A stretch of DNA of 64,000 nucleotides from a virus. Lineage: Duplodnaviria > Heunggongvirae > Uroviricota > Caudoviricetes. The notes under the pieces were generated by a model that was not told the origin of the DNA, did no database searches, and was given only the letters and a program-made list of their open reading frames with translations. Numbering within the stretch: position 1 is the stretch's first letter; every line of letters starts with the position of its first letter. This document shows positions 802-63,730 of the stretch, one piece after another. The stretch lies in the IMG/VR virus record IMGVR_UViG_2917886563_000007. The stretch is one strand, 5' to 3'. Made by a program: the position numbers and the translations under genes.

Positions 802-1665
802 TCAGAAGAAGAAATCCCAGACTGCACGGGCGACTGATACCACGATGTTGCGTACAGACTGGATAACTGTCCGAACCGGGGCCGGTATGAGTGGCAGGGA
901 ACTTACAGTGTCCAGTACCGAGCCTACTGTTTCACCAAAATCGTCACGGGCTTTTTTATTAACGGCATCGGTACGAAGAGGAGCACTAAGCTGTACCGCT
1001 ACCGGGCTACTGGCCTCACGCGGAAGGCAACGAATCATACGCTCTGCCATCACCCGCAGTCCCCAATGCAGACGAACCGACACCGCACAGATCGGATTTA
1101 CTGGTTGGAATAACTCATGCAGCAAGCAGATTTTGCGACTGATGTTCTGCTTTTGCTCCCTGGAGAGCTTATCACCGCCGCTGGTGGGTTCAGCCTTATC
1201 CGACTGACTGATAACAAACAGCACCTTATGTCGGTAAGCCTCCCCAATTACCTGATGGTAAAATTGTTCATCCACCCCCAGCGCCCGATCATCAGCCTTA
1301 ATCAGCCACAGTACCAGGTCGAGCCGGGGAAGTTGTTCGCGATACAGGGCGGCGTATTCAGTATCGCGCAAACTACTTTCCCCCACGCCTGGTAGATCAA
1401 CAAGGGTCATAACGCTCTCGCCCACTTGCAGGCTAAATTGTAAGGGGACGCGTGTGCAGGCGACTACATCGCTAACCGGTGAAACCTCACTGGCAAACAG
1501 GGCATTGCACAACGACGATTTTCCTGCCCCGGTTTTACCCATAATGCCGATCACAGGCTCGTAGTGAGTAAGCTGGTTTATCTGCTGCAGAATACGCTCC
1601 GATGCCCATTGCGGCAGGTCGGAAAGCGAGTCCTGCAGGTCAAGTAGACCTTCAATTTTTTTCAT
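802..1665 (-). CDS. YfjP/YkfA/YeeP-family GTPase of cryptic prophage islands
   Basis: ORF-track protein with P-loop GIMGKTGAGKSSLCNALF and DLPG motif; likely start MKKIEGLLDL at 1665 preceded by a GGAG RBS. Confidence 0.8.
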   Translation of the reverse strand: MKKIEGLLDLQDSLSDLPQWASERILQQINQLTHYEPVIGIMGKTGAGKSSLCNALFASEVSPVSDVVACTRVPLQFSLQVGESVMTLVDLPGVGESSLRDTEYAALYREQLPRLDLVLWLIKADDRALGVDEQFYHQVIGEAYRHKVLFVISQSDKAEPTSGGDKLSREQKQNISRKICLLHELFQPVNPICAVSVRLHWGLRVMAERMIRCLPREASSPVAVQLSAPLRTDAVNKKARDDFGETVGSVLDTVSSLPLIPAPVRTVIQSVRNIVVSVARAVWDFFF

Positions 1666-1939
1666 CTCAACTCCGCTGAAAAGTAAAACATAAAACGGTA
1701 AAACCAAATGGTTTTACCGTTTAAAAGGAAATGTTCAGGGGAATGATATATATCTTAATGTTTTTAGAATGGATTCATATATGATGTTGATCTTATTCAA
1801 GATATCCTAGAGTATCATTCTGTTGATAACATATTGAATTTGGTTAAAATAATTGAGCCTGATATCCCTTTTTACTGAATTTCAAGAGGTATTGGGTTGT
1901 GTTCGTTCGCCCAATTCTATTGATGACAAGGAAAAGCAA

Positions 1940-4900
1940 ATGGTTAGTAGCCAGTATCCCCGGGGTTCAGAATGGCATAAGTGGGATTTACATATTCACA
2001 CTCCAGCATCTTTTCATTGGAATGGCCCGAGATTTAAGTCAGATCCACGCTCACCAGAGAACGCCCCACTAGTGGATGCAATGATCAATGCTATGAATGC
2101 AGCAGAACCAATCGCATTTGCGATTATGGATTATTGGACCTTTGATGGATGGTTTGCGTTAAAACATCGATTGACGCAAGAAGATGCCCCCAAGCTAGAA
2201 AAAACCGTTTTTCCTGGAATTGAATTGCGGTTGATGGCGCCAATGCGTGGAAGGCTAAATGCTCACGTTCTTTTTTCTGATCATATACCAGATCAGGAGC
2301 TTATTGATTTCAAGAGTAAACTAGAGGTTGCTCTAATAAATAAGTCATTATCAGATTCAGCCTTAATCCAAATAGCTAGGGAGGCTGCACCAGATAAATT
2401 GCGGCATCATAGTCTCAACCAACAAAAGATTCTTCAATCTGATGCTGATGCTCTCAAGGCTGGTTCAATAATAGCCGAGGTTACATGTGAGAGTTATCAA
2501 AAAGCAATTAACAGTGTCAGCAAAAATCAAGCTATTGGGTACATGCCATTTGATACCAATGATGGGCTTACTGAAATTGAGCGTAACGCGCATTATGCAT
2601 TCGCATTAACTCTTTTCAAGACATCACCAATATTTGAAACAAGGGATTATGCTACGTGGGCAGCTTTCGCTGGTGTAAAGGTCCCTGAAAATGAAAGGTG
2701 GTTTGATGCTTTTCAAAAGGCTTTAAATAATAAACCTAGACTTGCTATTTCAGGGAGTGATGCTCACTGCTTTGTTGGAGAACCTGGTAACAATGATCGC
2801 CGAGGATATGGTGACTACCCTTCAGGAAAGGCAACATGGATAAAGGCTAATCCAACATTTGACGGATTAATGCAAGCAATAAGAGAACCAGCAAAACGTT
2901 CATTTATTGGTGCTATTCCTAAAAAACGGAAATTAGTAAGCGAAAACAGAAGTCTATTTATTGAAAAGCTAGAAGTTAAAAAATCAATTGATTCATCAAT
3001 CAATGAATCCTGGCTCGACAATACGGATATACATTTAAATCACGATTTAGTCGCTATTATTGGTAATAAAGGTAGTGGTAAAAGTGCATTGGCTGATATT
3101 GCAGCGTTGCTTGGTAACTCTAAACAAAGTCATCATTTTTCCTTCCTAAAGGAAAATCGATTTAGAGGAAAAACAGGTGAGCCAGCACGTCACTTCAATG
3201 CAAAAATAGTATGGAGTGATGAAAAAGAGTTAACAAAAAACCTTAATGATAATCCAGCAACTGAAAATGTTGAATTAATAAAATACATTCCACAAGGCCA
3301 TTTTGAAGAGTTGTGTAATGCTCATGTATCGGGCCAATCAGATGCATTTGAAAAAGAACTAAGATCTGTAATCTTCTCACATGCAGATGAATCTATACGC
3401 TTAGGTGCTCATGATTTTGAAGATCTGATAGAAAAGCAGGAGAGCTCTCTTCGAAGCCAACTAGAAAGCTATCGTAGTGAGATGCATAAACTCAATGAAC
3501 AAGTAATGTTTATTGAGAGCCAAATGACCGATGAAGCAAAAAAAGCACTTGATGAAATGTTGGCTCAAAAAGTTAGATTACTGGAAGAGTTGATCAAAGC
3601 AAAGCCAGAAGAAGTTCCTGAACCATCTAATGAGCTTACACAGGAACAACAACAAATATCTGAACAGCTATCAAACATCAATCAAGAATTAGAAAAGTTA
3701 CAGAAGCAGCAAGAATCAGACCTAGAAGAACTTACAAAGTTAGCCGGAAAGAGAAAAGCAAGCAAGAATATTAAGGCTGGTTTTGAAATCGTCAAACGTG
3801 CAGTTAATCAATTTGTGTCAGAGTTTGATTCAGATGCTAAACTCCTTGGTTTGGATATAGAGAGTTTAGTTAGAGTTGATGTTGATGAAAAAACTCTCTC
3901 TGCATTAGACGATGCTGGTTCACTTCGTGAAAAAGAAATCAAAGAACGTCAATTAACCCAAGTGGCTAGTAAACAATTAATTTTGGAGAAAAAAGCTCCA
4001 CTAAATGCACAGTTGAATGCCCCACAACAAGCATACCAGTTGTTTAAAGAACAGCTCAAAGCTTGGGGTGAGAAACATGCAGCATTATTAGGAAACAAAG
4101 ATGATCCAGATACACTCGAAGGTATCAAGCATAGAATATCTAAACTGGAGCAACTTCCAAGTCAACGATTAGAATTACATGAGAAACGAAACGATTTGAC
4201 TCGAAAAATTTTTACAATTCTTAATGAGCAAAAAGAGAATCGTGAAACCCTTTTCGAACCAGTACAATCACTTATTCAAAATAATATTCTTATCCGTGAT
4301 GAATACAAACTACAATTTAGAGCTGAACTAAGTAGCACTGCAGATCTAATTTCAAATAGATTATTTTCCATTGTTAAGCAAGCGTCGGGTGAATTTAGGG
4401 GCGAATCAGAGAGTCTTTCAGTAATTAAAGACCTTATGGATCGACATGATTTAAATGACCAAGAATCTTTACTCATGTTTGTCCAGGAATTGCACAGAAA
4501 ACTAGAGAGTTCTTCTAAGAATCCAGTTGGTGTAGCTTCATTGTTACGCAAAGATCGTACAGCTAATGAAGTTTATGACCTTATTTTTGGCTTAGAGTAC
4601 CTTGAGCCAAGATATACATTAATGTTTCAAGATGCTCAAATAGGACAATTGTCTCCTGGACAAAGAGGGGCCTTACTTCTGATTTTCTATCTGCTTGTGG
4701 ATAAAGGAAATACACCAATAATTCTGGACCAGCCTGAAGAGAATCTTGACAATGAAACTATTGTTAGCCTGCTTGTACCTGTTTTAACGGAAGCAAAGCA
4801 AAAACGACAGATTATTATGGTTACACATAATCCGAATCTTGCAGTTGTTTGTGATGCAGAGCAAATTATCCATTGTGAGTTTGATCGCACAAAGGGGCAC

Positions 4901-5014
4901 AAAATAACATATACCCCAGGAGCTATTGAGTGTAGCGTAATTAATAACAAAGTGGTTGATGTTCTTGAAGGAACTATGCCTGCATTTGATAATCGTAGAA
5001 TGAAGTATATGTGA
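1940..5014 (+). CDS. PHP-domain phosphoesterase fused to SbcC/Rad50/OLD-like ABC ATPase with central coiled coil; candidate single-gene defence nuclease
   Basis: ORF track starts at a TTG at 1853; more likely start is ATG 1940 after an aagga RBS. PHP motifs DLHIHT (1985-2002) and GSDAH (2753-2767); Walker A GNKGSGKS (3062-3085); Lys/Glu/Gln-rich heptad-like region about 3400-4300; ABC signature LSPGQRG (4649-4669); Walker B IILDQPEENLD (4718-4750); H-loop VTHN (about 4820-4831). Visibly AT-rich. Confidence 0.75.
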   Translation: MVSSQYPRGSEWHKWDLHIHTPASFHWNGPRFKSDPRSPENAPLVDAMINAMNAAEPIAFAIMDYWTFDGWFALKHRLTQEDAPKLEKTVFPGIELRLMAPMRGRLNAHVLFSDHIPDQELIDFKSKLEVALINKSLSDSALIQIAREAAPDKLRHHSLNQQKILQSDADALKAGSIIAEVTCESYQKAINSVSKNQAIGYMPFDTNDGLTEIERNAHYAFALTLFKTSPIFETRDYATWAAFAGVKVPENERWFDAFQKALNNKPRLAISGSDAHCFVGEPGNNDRRGYGDYPSGKATWIKANPTFDGLMQAIREPAKRSFIGAIPKKRKLVSENRSLFIEKLEVKKSIDSSINESWLDNTDIHLNHDLVAIIGNKGSGKSALADIAALLGNSKQSHHFSFLKENRFRGKTGEPARHFNAKIVWSDEKELTKNLNDNPATENVELIKYIPQGHFEELCNAHVSGQSDAFEKELRSVIFSHADESIRLGAHDFEDLIEKQESSLRSQLESYRSEMHKLNEQVMFIESQMTDEAKKALDEMLAQKVRLLEELIKAKPEEVPEPSNELTQEQQQISEQLSNINQELEKLQKQQESDLEELTKLAGKRKASKNIKAGFEIVKRAVNQFVSEFDSDAKLLGLDIESLVRVDVDEKTLSALDDAGSLREKEIKERQLTQVASKQLILEKKAPLNAQLNAPQQAYQLFKEQLKAWGEKHAALLGNKDDPDTLEGIKHRISKLEQLPSQRLELHEKRNDLTRKIFTILNEQKENRETLFEPVQSLIQNNILIRDEYKLQFRAELSSTADLISNRLFSIVKQASGEFRGESESLSVIKDLMDRHDLNDQESLLMFVQELHRKLESSSKNPVGVASLLRKDRTANEVYDLIFGLEYLEPRYTLMFQDAQIGQLSPGQRGALLLIFYLLVDKGNTPIILDQPEENLDNETIVSLLVPVLTEAKQKRQIIMVTHNPNLAVVCDAEQIIHCEFDRTKGHKITYTPGAIECSVINNKVVDVLEGTMPAFDNRRMKYM

Positions 5015-5024
5015 TGTTTGCATA

Positions 5025-5066
5025 AAACTGCCCATCTATAAGTTTTAGATGGGCAGTTTCTTTCGA
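5025..5066 (+). terminator. Rho-independent terminator after the PHP-ATPase gene
   Basis: Inverted repeat ctgcccatcta / tagatgggcag (5028-5056) followed by a T-rich run. Confidence 0.6.
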
Positions 5067-5195
5067 AGTTACCGGGGGCACATTGGCAGTGCGATAAATC
5101 AATAATATCTTTTATGATATTCGGATTTATATTATGGAATGATATAAGTGCTTATAAACTTTTACTGGAATTTAATGGGGTTGTATTATAACCAA

Positions 5196-5816
5196 CTACC
5201 CTCGACTGCATCCGAAATTTCTGTCACCTTCACCAAATATTTTTGTATCTAACTTGGTTAAATAGTCTAGACGGGTGAGAAGGTCGTTATACACAATGTC
5301 AAAATCCGGATCGTTAACATTCAATACATATCTACAATTCTCCGGGAAATGAACCAGATTCCTGCAATCCTCAGGTTCAAGATTAAGAGCACTATACCAT
5401 GCTCTAGTTATCATATTAGTGAGCGTACCGCTATGTTCATGATGACCCAAGTGATAGTAAGCATCTTTATTGAAAAATAGACAAGTGTGAAAATGACATT
5501 TTCCACTCTGCGTGTATTCCCTTGCCCAGAGTTGGCGTATTGAATTTGGTTTTATTCTAATCCCAGCGCATACTCTACGGTTTTCACTAGCAGCTAATAT
5601 AGCTTTTAATGAATTTATAAAGCGAGATATTGCTCCAGGTTCAAGATTATGAAAACAACAAACTGTGTCGCCATTATCAAGGATTTTCGGATAATGAAGA
5701 TCAACCCTTAACGCCATAGTTTTGGAGAATTGATGAATAGCATTGTTAATCACGGTAGCAATATTGTCTCTATAAGAGATGATATGATTGCCATGAGTAC
5801 CATTATAGATTTTCAT
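5196..5816 (-). CDS. YfjJ/YagK-family protein (island backbone gene)
   Basis: 206-aa ORF; family resemblance to K-12 cryptic-prophage YfjJ/YagK recalled from memory; position between YfjI-like gene and cargo matches CP4-57 order. Confidence 0.55.
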   Translation of the reverse strand: MKIYNGTHGNHIISYRDNIATVINNAIHQFSKTMALRVDLHYPKILDNGDTVCCFHNLEPGAISRFINSLKAILAASENRRVCAGIRIKPNSIRQLWAREYTQSGKCHFHTCLFFNKDAYYHLGHHEHSGTLTNMITRAWYSALNLEPEDCRNLVHFPENCRYVLNVNDPDFDIVYNDLLTRLDYLTKLDTKIFGEGDRNFGCSRG

Positions 5817-6038
5817 AATAATAAGACCATAGTTGCTCTTATCTTAAATAAGAGCATGTTGATTAATATCTTTTCTATAGAGCAAATGAATTAATGTTTT
5901 GGCAATCACATACAACACTTCTATTAGTTATCAATAGAAACGACAATATATTACCTTTCCACCACCATTTACCTATATCAGGTCTGTTCCAGCCTAAAGA
6001 TTACGAGTGCAATTCGCTCTGCATTTAGCTTTGTACTT

Positions 6039-7484
6039 TTACACGATGTATTGTGTGCTGATAGATTGCATATAGTCTATATCAGGACCGATATATAAAG
6101 ATCTTCCACGTTTAGCTATTCTGATTTTTCCTTGCTGAACTAAAATTTCCAATAAACCATCTGCGACTTTCTTTCTTCTCAATCGATTAGGTCCAAAGGA
6201 GTAAATTAACACTTTGTTAAAATAAATTATGGAGTTGTCTTCGCAATATTTTATAACCCAGTTAAATAATTCTTCAGAATCAACTTGTTCCTCTTTTTTA
6301 TCTAGGAGCTTAGGAGGTGAAAATATACGGATATATTCATCTGTAAACCAAAGTGTAATTTCAATTGCTGCCTCTATGGCTTCTAAAGAAATATCACCTT
6401 CCCCATGGTTAAAATAAAATAGAAGTGCTGATATTCTTGCTGCATTTTCTGCAATTTTAGAAGCATAATCTTTGATGTCAGAAAATAATCCAAATCCAAG
6501 CATCCCCATTTCGGACTCTACTTGATTATGAAATTGTATCCATCTTTCTTGTGCTTCCGGAGAAAAGTAGAGGCAGGTCCGTTTGCTGTTTTTATTTGAT
6601 GCAATGTTTGTCTTAATAATCTCCATTAATCTCTTATGAAACAATGGAAGATGTTCATTTGAAGTGACTGGGTTAGTTATTGTTCTGTAACCTTGTTTCG
6701 AGTGAGGTTGACAAATCAAAAATCGATTGAATATCCCAATTCCCTTTGCTATATCACCTTTATTTTTAATATATCTGCTAATAACGCTAGGTTGCGCCAT
6801 CAATCCTGCTGTTAGGGTTGCATTTTTAATTAATCTATCCGGTTCATTCTTTCTTTGCAGTGTGTATGTAGAACCATCCCACATTTTGTTGAGGAAGGGT
6901 AAGTCACCTAGGATATAGCCATTAAATACAGTTCCTGCTTCATCAGAAAAAATTCCGACAGAACGCCAATGACCGGAAAGATAATCTTTTAAAGCAGCGG
7001 GTGTCGCGTCATTAAATATCATCCTATATTTTATTGGTTCTTCTGGGTAAGAAGAAAGAAGTTCTTCAAGTCTTTTACGATGCTCAGAAATATCTCTATT
7101 GCAGCGAATGTCTGACTTGATTTTTGCTATAATTAATTTCTTTTCAATATCTATTATTTCAATTGTGTTTTTGTATGATAGCATTTCATTTAGATGCTTT
7201 TCAAATAACAATTCTTCAAATTCATATATCGGGTTAAATATTTGTTTGTAAACACCTGTTTTCCTTTCTCCAGAATCGGCGATTGTCAACAAATATAATG
7301 ATGCAGGGCCAGTAATGTTATTTATCCTACATACATCTATACTATTCTGACAGGCTAAAGAAATGGCACTTAGTATAGCTGAAGAAATCAATGATAGTGG
7401 GGCTTGAGTATGCTGTTCTACTTCATAGACAGCATTTCTGGCTAGTGAGGGCAGCGTGTGTACAGGGAAATTTTTATCTAACAT
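6039..7484 (-). CDS. YfjI-like large island protein (possibly DUF3987 family)
   Basis: 481-aa ORF immediately downstream of alpA in the same orientation, as yfjI in CP4-57; family assignment from memory only. Confidence 0.5.
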   Translation of the reverse strand: MLDKNFPVHTLPSLARNAVYEVEQHTQAPLSLISSAILSAISLACQNSIDVCRINNITGPASLYLLTIADSGERKTGVYKQIFNPIYEFEELLFEKHLNEMLSYKNTIEIIDIEKKLIIAKIKSDIRCNRDISEHRKRLEELLSSYPEEPIKYRMIFNDATPAALKDYLSGHWRSVGIFSDEAGTVFNGYILGDLPFLNKMWDGSTYTLQRKNEPDRLIKNATLTAGLMAQPSVISRYIKNKGDIAKGIGIFNRFLICQPHSKQGYRTITNPVTSNEHLPLFHKRLMEIIKTNIASNKNSKRTCLYFSPEAQERWIQFHNQVESEMGMLGFGLFSDIKDYASKIAENAARISALLFYFNHGEGDISLEAIEAAIEITLWFTDEYIRIFSPPKLLDKKEEQVDSEELFNWVIKYCEDNSIIYFNKVLIYSFGPNRLRRKKVADGLLEILVQQGKIRIAKRGRSLYIGPDIDYMQSISTQYIV

Positions 7485-7496
7485 AATAACCTCCTT

Positions 7497-7733
7497 TCAT
7501 CGTTTTTCTTCAGAAGCGAAGAGAGTGTGGATATAGCTTTGAACGTCATCCCAGAGCCAGTAGTTTTTTTTGTTAATTTTTTTTGGTCTTACCAAACCAG
7601 ATGGTAATTGATCTTGGCACAACCATTTTCTGATTGTTTGCGGTTTACAATTCAACAGTTGTGCTAAATCATTAGTAGAAACAAGTCGGATGTTGCTTGG
7701 AGATGATGCTTCACTTATTTGAAATTTGCTCAT
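7497..7733 (-). CDS. alpA: AlpA-family phage/island transcriptional regulator (excisionase-like HTH)
   Basis: 78-aa protein MSKFQISEASSP...LLNCKPQTIRKW...; AlpA-type HTH; located next to a P4-type integrase. Confidence 0.8.
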   Translation of the reverse strand: MSKFQISEASSPSNIRLVSTNDLAQLLNCKPQTIRKWLCQDQLPSGLVRPKKINKKNYWLWDDVQSYIHTLFASEEKR

Positions 7734-8206
7734 GATGCCACCCCGGAGATAAAAACGTGGGCAAATGAAGCAATAGGTAGGACGCAGGCTTTGTTTAAGA
7801 GATAGGAGGCGTTTAAGGAAAGGATAGAGAATAAGGAGGATGATCTGAGTACACTTGCAGGCTCGGGATCACCACCTTCACTTGAACCGGTGGAAAAAGA
7901 TCCCTTTGCTGACTTGGTGCTACTACGATGCGCTCTCGAGGTATGAGTTTTAAATGGCACTGAACGAGAAATCACGTTAGCTAAAGCAATTTTGCATGCC
8001 TTGTTTCGTACATTTTTCCGATAAATAGCCTGATCCATTACATGAAGGGCGACTTTCTTATAGTGGTTTTTAAACCATTGCTCAATGGGGAGTCCATTAG
8101 ATGATGGTGAATGGTATTGGATTTCAAAATTGATCTCGGGCAGTCCAAGCAGATTCGCCAGAATCTCTTGACTATCATCTAACACGGGGTTGTAACTATT
8201 AAACAT
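7730..8206 (-). CDS. Hypothetical island protein between integrase and alpA
   Basis: 158-aa ORF whose stop overlaps the alpA start; no recognisable motif. Confidence 0.4.
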   Translation of the reverse strand: MFNSYNPVLDDSQEILANLLGLPEINFEIQYHSPSSNGLPIEQWFKNHYKKVALHVMDQAIYRKNVRNKACKIALANVISRSVPFKTHTSRAHRSSTKSAKGSFSTGSSEGGDPEPASVLRSSSLFSILSLNASYLLNKACVLPIASFAHVFISGVAS

Positions 8207-8334
8207 TCTGATATTTCTCCTCTAGGGTCGTGAACTAATGAGGCGATTTTTATCCAAGTTTCAATATCTGTCAATAACTCTTTTATTTTTCAGGGTTAAT
8301 GTAACATATTGATATTTAATGAAATCAACGCGTA

Positions 8335-9651
8335 TCAACACTCGATTTTTTCATAAATAGAGGCCTGTTCTAAGATCCAGCTCTCAATTTTTTCATGCCA
8401 TTTACGCAACAAATCTAATGGACGACGACGGTAGTGTTTCTCAGCTAGAGCACTAGGTTTATGGCCCATAATCTGCGCAACTATGCCAGTTGGCACTTCG
8501 ACCCATTCGGCGAGCGTACCAAAACTACGACGTAATCCATGCAGGCTGATGTGTGGTAATTCAGCCTTAGCTAAGGCCCGATTGTGTGCGGAACGCGGTT
8601 CAATAATTTTGCCGCTTTTGCTATTACTCCTGAAAACCCAATCCTCCTTATTTACGTCAGAATTTGGTGTTTGCACCAATGCGCGTAACAGGTGAGTGAC
8701 ATAAGGAGTAAGAGGTATGATACGTTCGCCTTCGATCTTGTCTTTAATCCGCATACTTGACCATTTGAAATCGACGTCAGACCACCGAAGTGACGCAATT
8801 TCTTCGCGTCGCGCTCCGGTGAGTAAAAGTACCTGGAGATAGGCCGATGCAATGGGATTGTTGAGGTTACGCACGGCACTGAACCAGCTTTTTAACTGTT
8901 CTTTTTGTAAGCAATCTCCCGCTTTACTCGCTGATACTGGAACCAATTTTCTCACGTTATGATCTTGTGCAAGATCGCCATGGATTATTCCCTGATATTT
9001 TTTCTGGTAATTAACCCATTTGATAAATGCACGCAACAGACGGTAGGCATGAGCAGTGACGGTAGGCCGATTTTGTCTTTCTGTACTTAGCCATGCGGCA
9101 ATGTTCTCTGGTGTTAGTTCCGATAACGGTAGGTCGAGCAAGCTAGCCAATGGTCCAGCCGAGGTTGGGCCCCGGCCTCTTTTTTTACTTTCTCCTCCAC
9201 GGCTGGACAAGTTCACGTGATCGGCAATATAACGTGCAGAGTAAGGACGTTTAGTTTTTGCGCTGATTCCGGTTCTCAATTCTTGAAGATAATCTTCCCA
9301 AGCGCTTGAGAAGGTTACCTTCGTTTTACGAGATTCAGCCTGCTGTGATTCCGCTTCAGCAATTTTTTCTGCTTTAGCTATACGCGGATCTATCCCAGTA
9401 TCGATTAATGTTTGCAGCCGCCTGGCTTCGGCCCTGGCATCATCAATCCTCCAATCGTTAATGTTGCCAATGGTCATGCGAAGGGTTTTTCCCGCATATA
9501 CGCTTTGGAACACAAAAGCTTTTGTTCCGCGAGTTGCCCGGCATGCCAGAGTTGTTACATCCGCATCCCAAAGAAATGCTTGGTTTTTCCCTTCAGTTAA
9601 AGCAAATTTTCGAATACGCTCGAAGGTGAGTTTTTGTCTCGGAAGTGCCAT
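8335..9651 (-). CDS. int: P4-type tyrosine integrase
   Basis: Likely start MALPRQKLTFERI at 9651; C-terminal tyrosine-recombinase motifs (ARREE, HGLRRSF, GHK...Y); adjacent to a tRNA-Thr 3' fragment. Confidence 0.9.
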   Translation of the reverse strand: MALPRQKLTFERIRKFALTEGKNQAFLWDADVTTLACRATRGTKAFVFQSVYAGKTLRMTIGNINDWRIDDARAEARRLQTLIDTGIDPRIAKAEKIAEAESQQAESRKTKVTFSSAWEDYLQELRTGISAKTKRPYSARYIADHVNLSSRGGESKKRGRGPTSAGPLASLLDLPLSELTPENIAAWLSTERQNRPTVTAHAYRLLRAFIKWVNYQKKYQGIIHGDLAQDHNVRKLVPVSASKAGDCLQKEQLKSWFSAVRNLNNPIASAYLQVLLLTGARREEIASLRWSDVDFKWSSMRIKDKIEGERIIPLTPYVTHLLRALVQTPNSDVNKEDWVFRSNSKSGKIIEPRSAHNRALAKAELPHISLHGLRRSFGTLAEWVEVPTGIVAQIMGHKPSALAEKHYRRRPLDLLRKWHEKIESWILEQASIYEKIEC

Positions 9652-9833
9652 TTTTGGGCTCCAGATGAGAAAGGTTACATCACCATAATGTAACGGCTGG
9701 TGTAAGTAAATTAGGGGAATACACATCAACACCTGTCAATTTTTATCAACAGGTGTGTTTTATAAGTTAATGTTTTATAATGAACTAATTGTTTTAAGAG
9801 TAGGTTTTTAAAGGGGTAAAAGTATAATAACGT

Positions 9834-9884
9834 CGCATTCGTAATGCGAAGGTCGTAGGTTCGACTCCTATTATCGGCACCATC
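9834..9884 (+). repeat. tRNA-Thr (thrW-type) 3' fragment; direct repeat, attL of lambdoid prophage and right-end repeat of the P4-like island
   Basis: cgcattcgtaatgcgaaggtcgtaggttcgactcctattatcggcacca matches the anticodon-to-CCA half of tRNA-Thr(CGU) as recalled; the upstream sequence does not match the 5' half, so not an intact gene. Confidence 0.8.
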
Positions 9885-9896
9885 TAAATCAATAAG

Positions 9897-11060
9897 TTAC
9901 ACATCATTAGTACCTTCCTTATTTTTTGACTGGGACAAATTTGGGACCGATGGGTTCAGGATCGAGTCTATTTGCCGTGCGTGTTCGGTAAGGTGATTAG
10001 GTGCAAGGTGAGCATATCGACGAACCATTTCGATAGACTCCCAGCCTCCCATTTCCTGTAACACTGACAACGGGACTCCGGCTTGAACCAGCCAACTTGC
10101 CCAGGTGTGTCTCAAGTCGTGAAATCTGAAATCATCAATACCAGCCCGTCTCAGCGCCGCTTTCCAGGCTGTGTTTGCGTCATACCGCATCTTCCTTACT
10201 GTTGGCGCTTTCGTTCCGTCTGGTTTGGTACAGCTTTCCTTGTACACAAATACCCAACGGTGATGATTCCCGATTTGTTTTTTCAATACGCGACATGCAG
10301 TATCATTCAGCGCAACGCCAATTGCGCGGTTTGATTTACTCTCTTCCGGGTTTATCCATGCCACCCGGCGCTGCATATCTATTTGTTGCCATTCAAGGTT
10401 GATGATGTTCGAGCGTCTTAAACCTGTTGCCAGTGCAAATTCAACAACAGACTTTAATGGCTCCGGACATTCATCAATCAGCCTTTGTGCTTCATGAGGC
10501 TCCAGCCAGCGGATCCGTTTATTCTTTGGTTGAGGCACTTTAATAATTGGTGCCTTATCCAGCATTTTCCATTCACGCTCTGCGGCTCTTAGCAGGGCCT
10601 TTATAAATGAAAGATGCGTTGCCTTCGTTGCAACGGACGCTGGTTTTGGCGTGTATTCTGGAACTGGTTTCCCTTTTTTTCTGCATGCTTCTGCCCTGAG
10701 TTTCCAGTTTTCCTCATGACGCCGGTTCGTCATTTTCTGCATTGCTGAATAAATTTTTGATTCAGTAATGTCTCTTAGTTGCATTCCTGCGAAATGTTGA
10801 AGCCAGAATCCGATCCGGCTTTTGTCATCGTCCAGTGATTTTTTATGTGCTTTCTCTTCGAGCCACCTGACACACGCCTCCTCGAACGTCATATCAGGTA
10901 TTTCACCAAGTTTGCTGACCCGCCATGCTTCAGCCTTTAGCTTGTCATGGAGCTCTGTCGCCTGCCTTTTGTCCTTTGTTCCAAGAGACTGTTTAAATCT
11001 TTTACCGTTCGGCAATGTGAAACTGGCGTACCATATTTCACCTCTGCGGAAGAGTGACAT
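9897..11060 (-). CDS. int: Phage tyrosine integrase, P22-type (thrW-specific)
   Basis: 387-aa protein [24 protein letters not shown]... close to P22 Int as recalled; stop lies 13 bp from the att repeat. Confidence 0.9.
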
Positions 11061-11287
11061 TTTCTTTCCTCTGTTATGCCATCACCCGCGCTCACCTGGA
11101 CAGTATGCAGCGGAGACTGAAGCGCCGCAATGCAGGCTTGTCGTGTTGTGAGGTAAGGAGATTTTGGTTTAGTGGGGTCTTTGCGTGTTGCCTGTAGGCG
11201 GCCTGTTCGTATCCAGTTGGTAGCGGTAGGTCTGGATATCTTGAGAAACTGACAGGCCTCATCGAGTGTGAGGCTGTATGATTCCAT
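10937..11287 (-). CDS. xis: Excisionase (P22 Xis-like)
   Basis: Start [31 protein letters not shown] at 11287; overlaps the int 5' end. Confidence 0.8.
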
Positions 11288-11537
11288 GGTTACCTCTGCT
11301 TTTTGAACGCATGTCACGTAACTTCTTAATGTGTTCTGCCGTTTCGATCTCTTCTGCTATCCGATCTGCATCAGCTTTATTCACAGGTTCAAAGTCATGA
11401 TTAAAGCGGAACATGCTGGCGATACATGTTCTGCCTTTTCGGATGTAGTGAACTTTGTTGTGAGTGGAACGCAGGATTTTGCAGGGAGTGCCGTGTTGGT
11501 CGACGTACCAGGTGTTAGGGTAAATCACTCTGAACAT
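11259..11537 (-). CDS. Hypothetical early-region protein
   Basis: 92-aa ORF in the early leftward operon; start uncertain. Confidence 0.4.
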   Translation of the reverse strand: MFRVIYPNTWYVDQHGTPCKILRSTHNKVHYIRKGRTCIASMFRFNHDFEPVNKADADRIAEEIETAEHIKKLRDMRSKSRGNHGIIQPHTR

Positions 11538-11850
11538 TCTTGGCCTTGTGTTGTGCGGATTGATATTCAGTGCTGATATTCACCTTTATAGCGAACACCT
11601 TTACCGGTTTATCGCCAAAGTGCGGATGTGTGATTGTCTTCACTTCATATCCGTCATACGGAACATCAATTCTGCGACTGAAATCGTCACGCTTCGGATA
11701 TCCCTTCGTGATGATCAGACTGCCATACTCGCGGTTAACGAGGCGCTTTTTCCAGTAGTCATTAACAAGGCGATACTCTTCCGTTTTCTCTCCGCGAATC
11801 ATGGCATCGAAGTATTCACTTTTAACAGCAAGTTGCAGGTTAGCCATCAC
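11515..11850 (-). CDS. Hypothetical early-region protein
   Basis: 111-aa ORF, stop/start coupled to neighbours. Confidence 0.45.
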   Translation of the reverse strand: MMANLQLAVKSEYFDAMIRGEKTEEYRLVNDYWKKRLVNREYGSLIITKGYPKRDDFSRRIDVPYDGYEVKTITHPHFGDKPVKVFAIKVNISTEYQSAQHKAKNVQSDLP

Positions 11851-12068
11851 TTAATCCCCCTTTGTTTGCGGATAAGCTCCAGATCTTGCTGGCAACTGGC
11901 ACAAGTCCGACAACCCTGAACGGCCAGTCGTCTTCGTTCATCTATCGGATCGCCACACTCACAACAATGAGTGGCGGATACAGCCAGGTGGTTCAGACGG
12001 CGCATTTTTATTGCTGTGTTGCGCTGTAATTCTTCGATTTCTGATGCTGAATCAATGAGGTCTGCCAT
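11847..12068 (-). CDS. TraR/DksA-family C4 zinc-finger protein
   Basis: 73-aa protein with CCECGDPIDERRRLAVQGCRTCASC four-cysteine motif. Confidence 0.7.
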   Translation of the reverse strand: MADLIDSASEIEELQRNTAIKMRRLNHLAVSATHCCECGDPIDERRRLAVQGCRTCASCQQDLELIRKQRGIK

Positions 12069-12164
12069 CTCATTAATCCCTGAATTGTTGGTTAATACGC
12101 GTGAGGGTGAATGCGAATAATAAAAAAGGAGCCTGTAGCTCCCTGATGATTTTGCTTTTCATGT

Positions 12165-12380
12165 TCACCGTTCCTTAAAGACGCCGTTTAACATGCCGAT
12201 CGCCAGGCTTAAATGAGTCGGTGTGAAGCCCATCAGCGTTACCGTTTCGCGGTGCTTCTTTAGTACGCTACGGCAAATGTCATCGACGTTTTTATCCGGA
12301 AACTGCTGTCTGGCTTTTTTGATTTCAGAATTAGCCTGGCGGGCAATGCTGCGAAGGGCGTTTTCTTGCTGATGTGTCAT
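12165..12380 (-). CDS. Hypothetical small early protein
   Basis: ORF-track protein; start choice (12380 or upstream) uncertain. Confidence 0.3.
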   Translation of the reverse strand: MTHQQENALRSIARQANSEIKKARQQFPDKNVDDICRSVLKKHRETVTLMGFTPTHLSLAIGMLNGVFKER

Positions 12381-12456
12381 TGAACAAGTCCCATGTCGGC
12401 AAGCATAAGCACACAGAATATGAAGCCCGCTGCCAGAAAAATGCATTCCGTGGTTG

Positions 12457-13014
12457 TCATGCAGCCTCCCGACGGGCAAGAATCCTTGAGCCGAACGCCA
12501 TCAACTCGCCACGATCAACGGTCGTAAAGTGGCAGTGTGTACGGGGGTATGGGTGCCAGATAATGAGCATCGAGCCTTTATTATTTCCACTCACGGGTTT
12601 CCCGGTGAGTGGGTTAATAAATGCCAGTCGTCCTGCCGTGATGAATCTGACCTCACTGGCGGTTTGTATCGCTTCATGAAACCATCCGACAGATGTGTCA
12701 GCAGGCAGTAACATTACACATCCCACACTACTGAATTTGTTTTCAGTGGCTGCCTTTTTCACAAAAGGGGAAATATTGCTGTATGGTGGATTCAGCCAGA
12801 CATAACCAGAGGCATATCCCATTGCTTCAGGCCATGAAGTGGTTAATGTGTTCTGCTCCTGTGAGATAAAAAGCCGACATAGCCGGTTTTTTTCGTTGGC
12901 TGCAGCATCAAGTTGAAAAACGAACTCTGCATTAAGCGCAGCAAAAATCTCTGGTGGTGTGCGCCAGCTGTCGCGATGTTCGGCAGGAGTATTGCTTCCG
13001 GTGAAATCAGTCAT
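12457..13014 (-). CDS. Phage DNA N6-adenine methyltransferase (Dam-like)
   Basis: 185-aa protein with WRTPPEIF and LNPPYS (NPPY) motifs. Confidence 0.8.
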   Translation of the reverse strand: MTDFTGSNTPAEHRDSWRTPPEIFAALNAEFVFQLDAAANEKNRLCRLFISQEQNTLTTSWPEAMGYASGYVWLNPPYSNISPFVKKAATENKFSSVGCVMLLPADTSVGWFHEAIQTASEVRFITAGRLAFINPLTGKPVSGNNKGSMLIIWHPYPRTHCHFTTVDRGELMAFGSRILARREAA

Positions 13015-13165
13015 ACAGCCCCCCGTTTATTATTTATCTCCTCAGCCAGCCGCTGTGCTTTCAGTGGATTTCTGATAACAGAAAGGCCGGGAAATACCCA
13101 GCCTCGCTTTGTAACGGAGTAGATGAAAGTGATCGCGCCTACCCGGATATTATCGCGAGGATGCT

Positions 13166-13846
13166 TCATCGCCATTGCTCCCCAAATACAAAACCAATTT
13201 CAGCCAGTGCCTCGTCCATTTTTTCGATGAACTCCGGCACCATCTCGTCAAAATTCGCCATGTACTTTTCATCCCGCTCAACCACGACATAATGCAGGCC
13301 TTCACGCTTCATGCGCGGGTCATAGTTGGCAAAGTACCAGGCATCTTTTCGCGTCACCCACATGCTGTACTGCACCTGGGCCATGTAAGCCGACTTTATG
13401 GCCTCGAAACCACCGAGCCGGAACTTCATGAAATCCCGGGAGGTAAACGGGCATTTCAGCTCAAGGCCATTGCCGTCACTGCATAAACCATCGGGAGAGC
13501 AGGCGGTGCGCATACTTTCGTCGCGATAGATGATCGGGGATTCAGTAACATTCACGCCGGAAGTGAATTCAAACAGGGTTCTGGCGTCGTTCTCGTACTG
13601 TTTTCCCCAGGCCAGCGCCTTAGCATTAACTTCCGGAGCCACACCGGTGCAAACCTCAGCCAGCAGGGTGTGGAAGTAGGACATTTTCATGTCAGGCCAC
13701 TTCTTTCCTGAGCGGGGCTTTGCTATCACGTTGTGAACTTCTGAAGCGGTGATGACGCCGAGCCGTAATTTGTGCCATGCATCATCCCCCTGTTCGACAG
13801 CTCTCACGTCGATCCCGGTACGCTGCAGGATAATGTCCGGTGTCAT
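13166..13846 (-). CDS. exo: Lambda-type exonuclease (Red alpha)
   Basis: 226-aa protein [40 protein letters not shown]... essentially lambda Exo as recalled. Confidence 0.95.
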
Positions 13847-14628
13847 GCTGCCACCTTCTGCTCAGTGGCTTTCTGTTTCAGGAATCCAAGAGCTTTCGCT
13901 GCTTCGGCCTGTGTCAGTTCTGACGATGCACGAATGTCGCGGCGAAATATCTGGGAACAGAGCGGCAATAAGTCGTCATCCCATGTTTTATCCAGGGCGA
14001 TCAGCAGAGTGTTAATCTCCTGCATGGTTTCATCGTTAACCGGAGTGATGTCGCGTTCCGGCTGACGTTCTGCAGTGTATGCGGTATTTTCGACAATGCG
14101 CTCGGCTTCATCCTTGTCATAGATACCCGCAAATCCGAAGGCGAGACGGGCACACTGAATCATGGCTTTATGCCGTAACATCCGTTTGGGATGCGACTGC
14201 CACGGCCCCGTGATTTCTCTGCCTTCGCGGGTTTTGAATGGTTCGCGGCGGCATTCATCCATCCACTCGGTAACGCAGATCGGATGATTGCGGTCCTTGC
14301 GGTAAATCCGGCATGTACAGGATTCATTGTCCTGCTCAAAGTCCATGCCATCAAACTGCTGGTTTTCATTGATGATGCGGGACCAGCCATCAACGCCCAC
14401 CACCGGAACGATGCCGTTCTGCTTATCAGGGAAGGCGTAAATTTCTTTCGTCCACGGATTAAGGCCGTACTGGTTGGCGACGATCAGCAATGCGATGAAC
14501 TGCGCATCGCTGGCATCGCCTTTAAATGCTGTCTGGCGAAGAGTGGTGATCAGTTCCTGTGGGTCGACAGAATCCATGCCGACACGTTCAGCCAGCTTCC
14601 CTGCCAGCGTTGCGAGTGCTGTACTCAT
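13843..14628 (-). CDS. bet: Lambda Bet (Red beta) single-strand annealing protein
   Basis: 261-aa protein [37 protein letters not shown]... as lambda Bet. Confidence 0.95.
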
Positions 14629-14633
14629 CCGTT

Positions 14634-14930
14634 TTATACCTCTGAATCAATATCAACCTGGTGGTGAGCAATGGTTTCAACCATGTACCGGATGTGTTCT
14701 GCCATGCGCTCCTGAAACTCAACATCGTCATCAAACGCACGGGTAATGGCTTTTTTGCTGGCCCCGTGGCGTTGCAAATGATCGATGCATAGCGATTCAA
14801 ACAGGTGCTGTGGAAGACCTTTTTCCATGTCGTCTGCCAGTTCTGCCTCTTTCTCTTCACGGGCGATCTGCTGGTAGTGACGCGCCCAGCTCTGAGCCTC
14901 AAGACGATCCTGAATGTAACAAGCGTTCAT
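14634..14930 (-). CDS. gam: Lambda Gam (RecBCD inhibitor), short form
   Basis: 98-aa protein [56 protein letters not shown]... as lambda Gam. Confidence 0.9.
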
Positions 14931-15005
14931 GGCTGAACTCCTGAAAATGGCTGTGAAAATATCGCCAGCGAAATGCCAGGCTGATTAGAAAAACAGGAAA
15001 GGGGA

Positions 15006-15212
15006 TTAGTGATTCAGGCCGTTGCCGCGTCCGTCAAGAAAAACTTCCACGAGCAAGTCACGGGTATAAGTGCGCTCGATGCCGCGATGCAGATAAAGCC
15101 GTCCGCGTAAATTAGCTGATGCTGTCCAGGTACCATCTTTGTGTTTGACCAGCATTCCTGGCATGACCGCACCGCGATTAACGGTCTGCGCTCCGTAATG
15201 TTGATGAACCAT
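15006..15212 (-). CDS. Hypothetical small protein in the kil/cIII position
   Basis: 68-aa ORF downstream of gam; overlaps an alternative-frame ORF; identity not established. Confidence 0.3.
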   Translation of the reverse strand: MVHQHYGAQTVNRGAVMPGMLVKHKDGTWTASANLRGRLYLHRGIERTYTRDLLVEVFLDGRGNGLNH

Positions 15213-15769
15213 AAAAACCCCTGCCCGTAAGCTGGGCTGCTGAACATATAGAGACTTCTGCGCGTATTCAGGCGGTGGATGGCCGCCGGTGTCATAACTA
15301 AGCCGCCTCGTTGAAGCGACTGAGGTATGAAGTATCGAGTTGATTTCAGCTGGTCACACCGACGTTCACGCGTCCGTTTCACCCCTCGCACTCCCCGTAG
15401 CCTGCTGAAATTCAAGCTGCGGATCTAAGCGGTCATCGCAACGGTGAAGCGGTAAATCAGGAGATTGCCGCATTCCTGTGCCGTTGTGATGGATTTATAA
15501 TACCTATTGCTATTGATTATATCAATACGTATAAGTATCGAGCGATAGCGTTTGTTGTTATGCTGTTGATACTGAAAAGAATTTAATGTTGAGGTTTTTT
15601 GTGACATTCGACTCAAAATGGATTTTGCAATTAAATAACCAATTGATAACAATGAAAACATTACGGAGAACTAGATAGGCCAAATTACTTGCCACGAAGA
15701 TAGTTGTAAGCGTTGATAACAATGGTATTGAGGAGGGATACCCCCGACAATTGCGTCAGGGGGGAGGGA

Positions 15770-16156
15770 TTATTGGGCTTTAATGTAATTTTTCAACTTT
15801 GCAGTTTGCTCTACAGCGCTAGGAATGCATCCAAACATATTTGCGCATGAAGTTTGAACAACAATTTCGTTCTTATCGTTTCCTAAAGGTGTTTTTACAA
15901 CCTGATATCCAAGCACGGCACTATTTCCAATAGGAGTGTATGTGGAAATTACCGTTTCATCTGCCATCTGAATTTTCCAACCAGAATTCATTGCTATCCA
16001 AGCTTTGGCTCTCGACCAATATGTATCGCATTGCTCTTTACCTTGACAGTAAACTGGTTGTTGAGCTTGTGCGGCAATTTGGGGATCTATTTTCTGAGCA
16101 CATCCAGAGATGCTAATCAGAATAGCTGCTGTAACGAATAGTTTTCTCATTGACAT
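15770..16156 (-). CDS. Predicted lipoprotein in the rex position downstream of cI; candidate lysogen-expressed exclusion/moron protein
   Basis: N-terminus MSMRKLFVTAAILISISGCAQK has a signal peptide and lipobox ISGC; gene starts ~45 bp downstream of the cI stop on the same strand (start 16156 or 16150). Confidence 0.65.
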   Translation of the reverse strand: MSMRKLFVTAAILISISGCAQKIDPQIAAQAQQPVYCQGKEQCDTYWSRAKAWIAMNSGWKIQMADETVISTYTPIGNSAVLGYQVVKTPLGNDKNEIVVQTSCANMFGCIPSAVEQTAKLKNYIKAQ

Positions 16157-19808: not shown

Positions 19809-19904
19809 GGTTGACGATAACTAATATCTGGCGCTATATTCTGTGCGTTGCCGCAAAATCGGCACACGGGATTGGCGTCCCGGATAAGGTAATCGCGACT
19901 ACTA

Positions 19905-19928
19905 CACGCCGCGAGCGTGTTTTTTATT
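19905..19928 (+). terminator. Rho-independent terminator downstream of ren
   Basis: cacgc-cgcga-gcgtg hairpin followed by ttttttatt. Confidence 0.55.
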
Positions 19929-61738: not shown

Positions 61739-62680
61739 TGCCGTAAGAGGTTAATTCTGACCAGCAAAGGGGCTTTAACGTGCGGGCAATTACATAATTG
61801 ATAAGTTAAACTATAAGAGGATTAAACATATCAGCAAATACACTTTTTAAATATACTTGATGATATGCTTAAAGGGTGAATAGATACTCCTGAAAACATG
61901 CTCTTAGGAAAACATGCGGAATCAATCAGGAATATCTATTCGGGGCGCGGTGGCCAACCGCTATCTTTCATGGTGTGGATGCACCAGTCAGATTTTAAGG
62001 AATCACTATTCCAATCTACTCACAGATTAAATTTTTAATAATGATTAACTACACCAACAGTAATCTACCGTTTCAGAAAATCGTTTTTACAACCAAAGCT
62101 TATAGATCCGCATTCTATAAAACCCGTTTTGCTATCAATATTTCCAAAGTTTATTGCACCATTCTTAGCTAAACTCTCTCTGCTTGCGGCTAACGCTATG
62201 CAGATGATTGTTTTTGACAACAACTTAATAGATTATTCTGTTACTAACTTCTGTCATTAAATAATAGTTTAATGATGTTAGTAAATAGTTATAAAATATA
62301 ACTATCAGTGTAAGGCTCTTTAATGTTTTCTGACAAAATAAGGAGCTTTAGGATAAGCATAGATGAAAAATAAGAGCGGGAAGGGCAAGGAGATAACACC
62401 TACCCGCTTTTATCAAAATTAAGCACAATGCCTAACAACATTCATCAACACAACGTAGAAACAATCAACAATCAAAGAGGGAGTTATGATTATTCTAAAA
62501 CTTCTTGAGAGATGGAAGGTAATATTTGTTAGAGGTTAATGCCACTCAACCTTTGAGGCTATCACCTTCCATATGCAGGGATTTATGACAGTAGAAGGAT
62601 TAACACCAGTCAAAACCTTTTTATCTACCCCTAATATCATTATATAATGATATCGTTATAAATGCAAATGATTTTCATTA

Positions 62681-62989
62681 TCACTTAGAAGAAATAGCAC
62701 TTTTTGCTAAATCATCTACTAATTGCTGAATCTCTTCACTTGCAGCCTTTAACGTGCTGGCGGTGTATGTGATGATTTGAGTGCACAGCCTGGCATCGTC
62801 CTCTGATAGCTCTAAATCGCTCACCAGAGAGATAAAATCGTCAAGGCTTACATTCACCTTCATTAAGCTAATAACGCATTGAGAGAGCGTGTAATCGCAT
62901 AAATCTGAATAGGCTTGATTTATTCTTGTTTGTAGTGAGATAGTCAGATCTAAAAGTTGTTCCATTGCATTGCTAATATCTTCTTCCAT
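62681..62989 (-). CDS. Hypothetical protein
   Basis: 102-aa acidic ORF, AT-rich. Confidence 0.35.
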   Translation of the reverse strand: MEEDISNAMEQLLDLTISLQTRINQAYSDLCDYTLSQCVISLMKVNVSLDDFISLVSDLELSEDDARLCTQIITYTASTLKAASEEIQQLVDDLAKSAISSK

Positions 62990-63234
62990 TATGCGGCTTC
63001 TCCTTGTAATGCATCATTAATCATATTCAATACGATGTTAAAAGGTGTCTTGAGCGTCAGCACTTCATCACGATAACGCTCTAATGCTTCGTAGTCTTCT
63101 GTTTCTTTTGCCAGTCGGATTAACTCAGCATAGTTTTTTGCATCAGACAGGATCATCTGAAATAATTGTGTTTCTTGAATATAGCCAATCATTATTTTTC
63201 CTTTTTCGAATATTTTCATTGGGCGCTTATACAT
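62989..63234 (-). CDS. Hypothetical protein
   Basis: 81-aa ORF coupled to the downstream ORF. Confidence 0.35.
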   Translation of the reverse strand: MYKRPMKIFEKGKIMIGYIQETQLFQMILSDAKNYAELIRLAKETEDYEALERYRDEVLTLKTPFNIVLNMINDALQGEAA

Positions 63235-63249
63235 ACACCCATCATTTTA

Positions 63250-63633: not shown

Positions 63634-63730
63634 TTTTCCCTCTTTTTATGTGGATTATAAAAACTGGACGCCATTGTTACGATGAATATCGCCATAAATG
63701 CATTTGCCATATGTATTGCCCAATCTGTTG

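Follow-up and report, generated by a model that had tools for sequence, protein, structure and literature searches.

Ppl is a single-gene anti-phage system in which a domain of the polymerase and histidinol phosphatase (PHP) type is combined with an ATPase, and lists of defence systems credit it to Gao et al. 2020. Restriction of phage T7 and a phage counter-gene have been described for Ppl, which acts as a single gene. Xu et al. 2026 (Mol Cell 86:180) published its mechanism. According to the summary in a review (PMC12904381) and to citing papers, Ppl is a 3'-5' exonuclease of single-stranded DNA that is inhibited by nucleoside triphosphates (NTPs) on its PHP and NTPase domains, and it is released by phage-induced nucleotide depletion and by 3'-OH ends arising from phage homing endonucleases. 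Ppl was not among the contents of Rousset et al. 2022, a study of P2/P4 hotspots. The name TrlF derives from the temperature restriction locus (TRL) trlR-trlF-trlG of Photorhabdus laumondii (Hapeshi et al. 2020, PMC7554251). Deletion of this locus permits growth at 36 C and complementation restores the arrest, while trlF itself was annotated as a 'histidinol phosphatase' and left without a role. The present analysis concerns a gene at 1940-5014 of a 64,000-nucleotide stretch of the Caudoviricetes record IMGVR_UViG_2917886563_000007 (IMG/VR), this whole stretch being referred to as the window. Judged from its sequence, the product is a stand-alone TrlF-family protein, homologous to Ppl over the full length but strongly diverged from it (~20% identity), and it probably functions as a single-gene Ppl-like anti-phage nuclease-ATPase. 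The gene and its predicted parts are listed below.

1940..5014, + strand: gene of a TrlF-family PHP-ATP-binding cassette (ABC) ATPase, 1024 amino acids (aa) plus stop, with an NF045780 match
1964..2944, + strand: PHP domain, residues ~9-335, predicted by AlphaFold2 (AF2) and Foldseek
2960..3400, + strand: N-terminal lobe of the ABC ATPase, residues ~341-487, predicted by Pfam, alignment, profile, AF2 and Foldseek
3401..4309, + strand: antiparallel coiled-coil insertion, residues ~488-790, predicted by AF2 and Foldseek
4310..5011, + strand: C-terminal lobe of the ABC ATPase, residues ~791-1024, predicted by Pfam, NCBIfam and alignment

The protein matched the NCBIfam model NF045780, 'TrlF family AAA-like ATPase', with 678.7 bits (E 2e-203) against a cutoff of 350 bits, and the match extended over residues 8-1023 and profile positions 1-943 of 944. 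The reference Ppl, the annotated protein WP_000233113.1 of Escherichia coli plasmid pCY708, matched the same model over its full length with 476.5 bits; being above the cutoff, it is implicitly joined with TrlF by this model. A profile built from 81 sequences of the subfamily (29-82% identity to the query) was aligned to Ppl by hhalign with a probability of 99.9% (E 4.8e-32) over 823 columns, pairing query residues 9-1020 with Ppl residues 2-888. BLASTP against Ppl recovered an N-terminal GSxWxKxDxHxHTPAS box, the stretch from SDAH to Walker A, and the C-terminal lobe, all collinear, and the motifs DxHxH[ST], GSDAH, GxxGSGKS, SPGQ[RK] and DQPE[ED] were present in both proteins. The two also share the order of their parts, namely N-terminal PHP, Walker A, coiled coil, SPGQ[RK], DQPE[ED], H-loop and an EG..AF..R tail, and both are encoded by single genes on mobile elements. 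They differ in size (891 aa in Ppl versus 1024 aa), the window protein having the larger PHP region and the longer coiled coil. Other plasmid-borne TrlF subfamilies are mutually 20-27% identical, which is the same distance as that between the window protein and Ppl.

The gene is thus a divergent relative of a known defence system and not a new kind, belonging to the named TrlF family that includes the validated defence protein Ppl. An earlier note on this DNA, made from the letters alone, had described a single ~1020-aa ORF at these coordinates and implied that it was novel. The ORF was confirmed; the novelty does not hold, as the family is already named (NF045780, TrlF) and includes Ppl with its published mechanism, a case that the note had itself foreseen. 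The defence role that it proposed is the best reading of the present results. In PHROGs, no family was found for the window protein.

The N-terminal PHP phosphoesterase proposed in the earlier note was recovered by fold, though sequence profiles were silent. In Pfam searches of the whole protein and of residues 1-345 separately, at E values up to 10, no PHP match was obtained, and phmmer with two profile searches against PDB sequences returned no PHP chain and merely a faint match to PsfC (E 0.15). Because the ATPase and the coiled coil dominated the Foldseek search of the full-length model, a separate model of residues 1-338 was built. This AF2 model had a predicted local distance difference test score (pLDDT) of 94.9 and a predicted template modelling score (pTM) of 0.92, and PHP domains accounted for each of its 21 best Foldseek matches in the PDB (E between 1.7e-7 and 4.7e-4), among them RNase AM/YciV, BAD_1165, Cv1693, Pol III alpha, PolC and Mycobacterium tuberculosis DnaE1. 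The predicted structure thus shows clearly that the N-terminus has a PHP fold. Since Pfam and the sequence profiles missed it, the assignment is based on the fold, the motifs and the homology to Ppl. The motif coordinates quoted in the earlier note, here and in the ATPase, all agreed by arithmetic on the translation, with DLHIHT at residues 16-21 (1985-2002) and GSDAH at residues 272-276 (2753-2767). The candidate metal ligands are D16/H18/H20, D64, E95, H109 and D274/H276. In the 81-sequence alignment, D16, H18, H20, D64, E95, D274 and H276 were invariant and H109 was present in at least 90% of the sequences.

The remainder of the protein is predicted to be an ABC ATPase of the SMC/Rad50 type whose lobes are split by an antiparallel coiled coil of ~300 residues, as the earlier note had proposed, and Pfam, the PDB profile, AF2 and Foldseek agreed on this. 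Pfam matched ABC ATPases only (SMC_N and AAA_21), and the sequence profile against the PDB matched Rad50, AriA and SMC6. The full-length AF2 model had a pLDDT of 89.8 and a pTM of 0.74, and its best Foldseek matches in the PDB were Rad50, SMC heads, MukB, JetC, LmuB, RecN and AriA (E 2e-9 to 1e-4). The N-terminal lobe carries Walker A GNKGSGKS at residues 375-382 (3062-3085) and the Q-loop Q452 (3293-3295). The C-terminal lobe carries the signature LSPGQRG at residues 904-910 (4649-4669), the Walker B/D-loop IILDQPEENLD at residues 927-937 (4718-4750) and the H-loop H963 (4826-4828), and ends in a conserved LEGT..AF..R tail. Across the 81 sequences G375, G378, K381, Q452, P906, G907, G910, D930-E933 (DQPE) and H963 were invariant or nearly so. 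Together with the PHP residues, this pattern of conservation shows both predicted enzymatic modules to be intact and under purifying selection. The coiled coil, which the earlier note had placed at about 3400-4300, consists in the AF2 model of helices at residues 493-553, 568-635, 651-717 and 726-789. Residues 493-790 (nt ~3416-4309) thus form outgoing and returning arms of ~300 aa between the two lobes. The apex, at approximately residues 636-650 (LGLDIESLVRVDVDE), is without cysteine and hence without a CxxC zinc hook, and a hinge domain was likewise not seen in the coiled coil of the AF2 model.

This architecture resembles several known nuclease-ATPase systems. SbcCD/Mre11-Rad50 likewise combines an SMC-like ABC ATPase, an antiparallel coiled coil and a metal-dependent phosphoesterase nuclease, and Rad50 was the best structural and profile match to the window ATPase. 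The SbcCD nuclease, however, is a separate calcineurin-like protein (Mre11/SbcD), whereas the window protein carries its putative nuclease, of PHP fold, on the same chain in cis, and its coiled coil is short and without a zinc hook; no SbcD-like gene was found by Pfam among the neighbouring genes. Proteins of the OLD/AAA_21 kind (Gabija GajA, PARIS AriA, retron Ec78/Septu-type) share an ABC ATPase with a DxPE Walker B and a coupled nuclease. AriA was among the best PDB matches and was also matched in the PADLOC search, and for Gabija sensing of NTP levels has been reported. Compared with these proteins, the window protein has an N-terminal PHP domain and a much longer coiled-coil insert, and neither Pfam nor NCBIfam detected a TOPRIM domain in it, its C-terminus being the C-lobe of the ABC ATPase. 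Lamassu LmuB and Wadjet JetC have an SMC-like head, a coiled coil and a defence context in common with the window protein. They belong to multi-subunit systems with a separate effector, kleisin or KITE, whereas the window protein is a single polypeptide with a fused PHP effector.

These likenesses raise the explanation that the protein serves mainly in competition between mobile elements or in the processing of DNA ends and not in phage defence, with an activity like that of Wadjet, Lamassu or SbcCD that would target plasmids, hairpins or linear DNA to the island's advantage. The structurally closest ATPases (Rad50, MukB, JetC of Wadjet, LmuB of Lamassu) point this way, as do the layout of ATPase, coiled coil and nuclease, which parallels SbcCD, and the frequency of the family on conjugative plasmids (831 of 1,155 matching plasmid records). 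A generic anti-plasmid activity nevertheless fits poorly with carriage on hundreds of plasmids, and the protein is without a hinge, a zinc hook, a kleisin or an Mre11-like partner. Furthermore, its closest characterised homologue, Ppl, restricts phage, and the gene does not belong to core repair, since 5,426 complete E. coli genomes lack it. This explanation is therefore considered unlikely. A housekeeping role of the SbcCD kind was rejected, given how patchily the gene is distributed and the mobile-element settings described below.

The interpretation as a Ppl-like anti-phage protein has to be weighed against several observations that count against it. The window protein fell short of the Ppl-specific equivalog model NF042955 (cutoff 1000 bits), on which the reference Ppl scored 1330.5 bits; it reached 76.5 bits, and this across no more than its C-terminal 323 residues. 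The PADLOC Ppl model (PDLC02208) gave 64.4 bits over residues 899-1019 only, and the global identity to Ppl was merely ~20%. Compared with Ppl, the PHP region is longer by approximately 64-84 residues, with GSDAH at residue 272 versus 208 and Walker A at 375 versus 290. The anti-phage role of this subfamily would follow by homology to Ppl, the mechanism of which is taken here from the review summary and citing papers. In Photorhabdus the growth arrest at 36 C, the one phenotype known for the three-gene operon, is assigned to trlG, since every spontaneous temperature-tolerant mutant was located there, with none in trlF (PMC7554251). Finally, expression from the predicted promoter-like site would depend on what is a consensus match only. 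The NCBIfam matches to 'anti-phage protein Ppl' and Spaf_1101 were both weak and confined to the C-terminus. The window protein is thus not Ppl in the strict sense of the equivalog; it is of the same family and architecture and has the same predicted catalytic residues.

If the Ppl-like interpretation is correct, the following course of events can be proposed. The gene would have entered a CP4-type integrative island by horizontal transfer, as the only cargo of its defence slot. Its product would dimerise through ATP-sandwiched heads, as expected from Ppl and from the general behaviour of SMC/Rad50 proteins, and would be kept inactive by cellular NTPs occupying the ATPase and PHP sites, as in Ppl. 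Phage infection would then deplete NTPs and yield DNA with free 3'-OH ends, upon which the PHP domain would degrade DNA in the 3'-5' direction and stop phage replication. That the trigger is the same as that of Ppl is suggested only tentatively by this analogy. Confidence here is lower because of the ~20% identity and the extra ~64-84 residues of the PHP region, and because this region is longer the sensing could differ from that of Ppl. Both the trigger and the substrate of this subfamily may be other than those of Ppl.

Photorhabdus TrlF, a large protein, gives its name to the family matched here and can be likened to the window protein by the family model and by its 'histidinol phosphatase' (PHP) annotation (PMC7554251). 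It is encoded in an operon with trlR and trlG, neither of which accompanies the window gene. The window protein could accordingly be imagined as one component of a multi-gene growth-arrest or stress module of the TRL type, inert alone or physiological in its action and not antiviral. The family is named after that operon, whose deletion lifts the arrest at 36 C with restoration by complementation, and to this extent the idea is reasonable. The neighbourhoods argue otherwise: no TrlG-like (AlbA_2 + HATPase_c_4) or TrlR-like (small helix-turn-helix) gene was found next to the window gene, and none was found in nine inspected family contexts or at the Ppl locus. The location of all the tolerant mutants in trlG also speaks against a part for trlF in the arrest, and Ppl functions as a single gene. 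A TRL-type module is thus quite improbable for this locus. In the literature search, no paper was found that ties the Photorhabdus temperature-restriction locus to Ppl-type defence. A wider and rather speculative reading would join the two, with the TrlF family forming a huge, mostly unannotated clade of Ppl-like NTP-gated nuclease defences whose trigger or substrate differs between subfamilies and with the Photorhabdus arrest being autoimmune. We regard this joint reading as somewhat unlikely; under it, the arrest may represent autoimmune activation of a TrlF/TrlG defence operon upon a change in DNA ends or nucleotide pools at 36 C.

The distribution of the family was examined by an exhaustive HMMER search, which gave 7,194 cluster representatives (50% clustering) at E <= 1e-3, of which 1,354 were at E <= 1e-30. 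Most of these relatives were ~1,000 aa long and matched end to end, and the weaker matches may be generic ABC ATPases. No DNA match to the TrlF gene, near or distant, was obtained in the 5,426 complete E. coli genomes, despite the right flank of the window being ~98% identical to E. coli; the gene is therefore not a conserved core housekeeping gene. The exact protein occurred on one public contig of 8.9 kb, which carries the same island. The nearest relatives, with 79-82% aa identity, were found in Vibrio. One of them, the closest named homologue (V. parahaemolyticus, 82% identity), is carried by an integrative element at mnmE, where it immediately follows a type III restriction-modification (R-M) pair. 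This element (contig positions 1078-15144, on the 3' side of mnmE) encodes MobI, RhuM, N6_N4_Mtase + ResIII, AlpA, DUF927 and an integrase, and has the layout of a mobilisable island with stacked defence cargo. A close Vibrio relative was present on a V. cholerae IncC plasmid, and other members included a lone insertion in a Serratia chromosome and a gene on a Klebsiella pasteurii IncFII plasmid.

More distant members adjoin AbiJ, NucS-like and type ISP R-M genes, and another adjoins HsdR and a DUF4011 helicase. On the F-type conjugative plasmid pKp11-42 of Klebsiella pneumoniae (1253-8996) a divergent TrlF gene lies beside a Gabija-like pair of an ATP-binding protein and a UvrD-helicase, together with an Abi gene. 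On pMAR2 of enteropathogenic E. coli E2348/69 (2548-6837), likewise F-type and conjugative, another divergent TrlF gene lies between ccdAB and vapB, and a further member on an F-type plasmid stands beside Abi and PLD genes. No partner gene was conserved across the inspected defence and mobile contexts. Altogether a family member was present in 1,155 plasmid records, 831 of them conjugative. TrlF-like genes were found in 7 of 50,697 phage records. The records PQ189346.1, OR848124.1, OR846775.1 and PP438423.1, which carry such genes, are 14-22 kb long, and these short records may be satellites or phage-inducible islands and not phages.

The signals around the window gene, which had been credited with a promoter region and a terminator of its own, were identified as follows.

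1823..1850, + strand: sigma-70 promoter-like site TTGATA-16 nt-TAAAAT, with 10 of 12 consensus matches
1928..1933, + strand: putative ribosome-binding site AAGGAA, 6 nt before ATG 1940, by sequence reading
5025..5066, unstranded: intrinsic-terminator-like hairpin with a 14-bp stem, a 7-nt loop and U-rich runs on both strands, by folding

On the + strand one long ORF runs from TTG at 1853 or ATG at 1940 to the stop at 5014, and ATG 1940 is likely the better start. It is favoured because of the AAGGAA Shine-Dalgarno sequence 6 nt upstream, because the promoter-like site at 1823-1850 would put the transcription start downstream of TTG 1853, and because of the lengths of homologues, which are 1022-1030 aa in full with alignments beginning at residue 2-8. 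The TTG start, from which a public annotation begins the identical protein (P0001, 1053 aa), was therefore dropped. Promoter-like sites were not significantly enriched in the region (16 versus 11.3 +/- 3.2 in shuffles). The hairpin at 5025-5059 with its U-rich tail folded at -23.9 kcal/mol (z = -6.2), a value equalled in 0 of 200 shuffles. It is placed between the convergent TrlF and YagK/YfjJ-like genes, with T-runs on both strands. Rfam gave no match in the 5' leader of the gene. The AT-richness attributed to the gene in the earlier note was borne out in that its G+C is low (0.35-0.42). It is not specific to the gene, for low values (0.33-0.38) persist in the backbone genes to ~8 kb and the contrast exists only against the GTPase side (0.52-0.58).

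The gene might instead be a silent or decaying passenger, left after recent transfer from a Vibrio-like donor. Its rarity, with the exact protein on a single 8.9-kb public contig, would agree with this, as would the Vibrio origin of its nearest relatives (79-82% identity) and a G+C lower than in the adjacent GTPase gene and in most of the window. A decaying gene would hardly retain a full-length ORF with all predicted catalytic residues intact, a ribosome-binding site, a promoter-like site, a terminator and an AF2 model that is confident throughout, and the passenger explanation is thus very unlikely. The Ppl-like interpretation is further placed in context by the island in which the gene resides, the visible features of which are given below.

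802..1665, - strand: YfjP-like GTPase gene, 287 aa from ATG 1665, flank of the cargo slot, Pfam MMR_HSR1/Dynamin_N
1693..1722, unstranded: hairpin with a 13-bp stem at the backbone/cargo junction, by folding
5196..5816, - strand: YagK/YfjJ-like gene, 206 aa, flank of the cargo slot, Pfam PF11726 (E 3e-53) and phrog_25019
6039-7484: island backbone gene of a DUF3987/YfjI protein, phrog_2373 'DNA helicase'
7497-7733: island backbone gene of an AlpA-like helix-turn-helix protein
7730-8206, -: 158-aa ORF between the AlpA-like and integrase genes, with no Pfam or PHROG family
8335-9732: island backbone gene of an intF-like integrase

The TrlF gene is the sole cargo between the YagK/YfjJ-like and YfjP-like GTPase genes and, on the + strand, is transcribed opposite to its flanking backbone genes, as had been noted earlier. 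No further ORF of at least 60 aa and no plausible small ORF was found between these two genes, antisense ORFs within the TrlF gene excepted. The GTPase gene has 86-90% DNA identity to that of an E. coli 'GTPase family protein', which is followed there by a yfjQ/yafZ DUF932 gene; in the island backbone, too, a DUF932 gene comes after the GTPase gene. In K-12 CP4-57 the same interval reads yfjJ-[abpB abpA yfjM rnlA rnlB]-yfjP, abpB-abpA being annotated as 'anti-bacteriophage protein', in agreement with the earlier note, which had placed rnlAB there. In E. coli ET245 (NZ_CP100978.1), whose backbone is 88-89% identical, the slot (9750-15775) carries other cargo. The slot is thus variable and is occupied in the window by a single-gene unit, as had been claimed, and because the K-12 and ET245 slots carry differing defence cargo, the interval between yfjJ and yfjP can be considered a hotspot of defence cargo.

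The ET245 slot contains genes for a BRO family protein, a cluster of DUF6527, ThiF adenylyltransferase and multiubiquitin-domain proteins, a winged-helix regulator and a hypothetical protein. The DUF6527/ThiF/multiubiquitin cluster is of the ubiquitin-like conjugation type of defence, and the cargo lies on the strand opposite to the backbone, as with the window gene. The 158-aa ORF at 7730-8206 has a syntenic 'hypothetical protein' in ET245. Backbone homology to ET245 stops (alignment 1-1698) exactly at the hairpin of 1693-1722, which lies 32 bp upstream of the start codon of the GTPase gene and may serve the cargo slot as a junction or an insulator.

The description of the island as P4-like could be retained in part. 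In the K-12 CP4 naming sense it is appropriate, given the integrase, AlpA, YfjI/DUF3987 and YfjJ genes, and the backbone class is that of the CP4-57/CP4-6 islands of E. coli, which it resembles more than complete P4. No P4 satellite hallmark (alpha primase-helicase, the capsid-size genes sid/psu/delta, cos) was seen in the visible part of the island, which extends past the left end of the window, and Rfam gave no match in the island, including to P4-type RNA.

If the window gene does restrict phage, experimental support for Ppl-type defence would no longer be confined to a single narrow equivalog but would reach a deep family, the subfamilies of which are 20-27% identical. The PADLOC and NCBIfam Ppl models overlook this and most other TrlF subfamilies, whose only current annotation is 'TrlF family AAA-like ATPase'. 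Annotation could therefore be improved by broadening the Ppl models of defence finders or by adding a model at the TrlF level. The gene would also represent a new type of cargo for the CP4-type yfjJ-yfjP slot besides AbpAB, RnlAB and the ThiF/multiubiquitin cluster, and the family link would provide a mechanistic lead on the temperature-restriction phenotype of Photorhabdus.

Beyond the island, a lambdoid prophage occupies ~9.9-53 kb of the window. Its tyrosine integrase gene (9897-11060) lies on the same strand as the intF-like integrase gene of the island (8335-9732), 164 bp apart from it. No tRNA or tmRNA gene was found anywhere in the window. Rfam matches at the gathering score comprised isrK (19849-19925), C4 antisense RNA (19951-20035) and the cspA thermoregulator (24600-24992), all of them inside the prophage. 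Patches of low G+C within and beyond the prophage, at 21000-22000 (0.38), 24000-26000 (0.41) and 62000-64000 (0.34-0.36), may represent additional accessory or moron cargo. The right flank at 58.9-64 kb matched, at ~98%, an E. coli region annotated as 'hypothetical protein x9 / flotillin family protein'.

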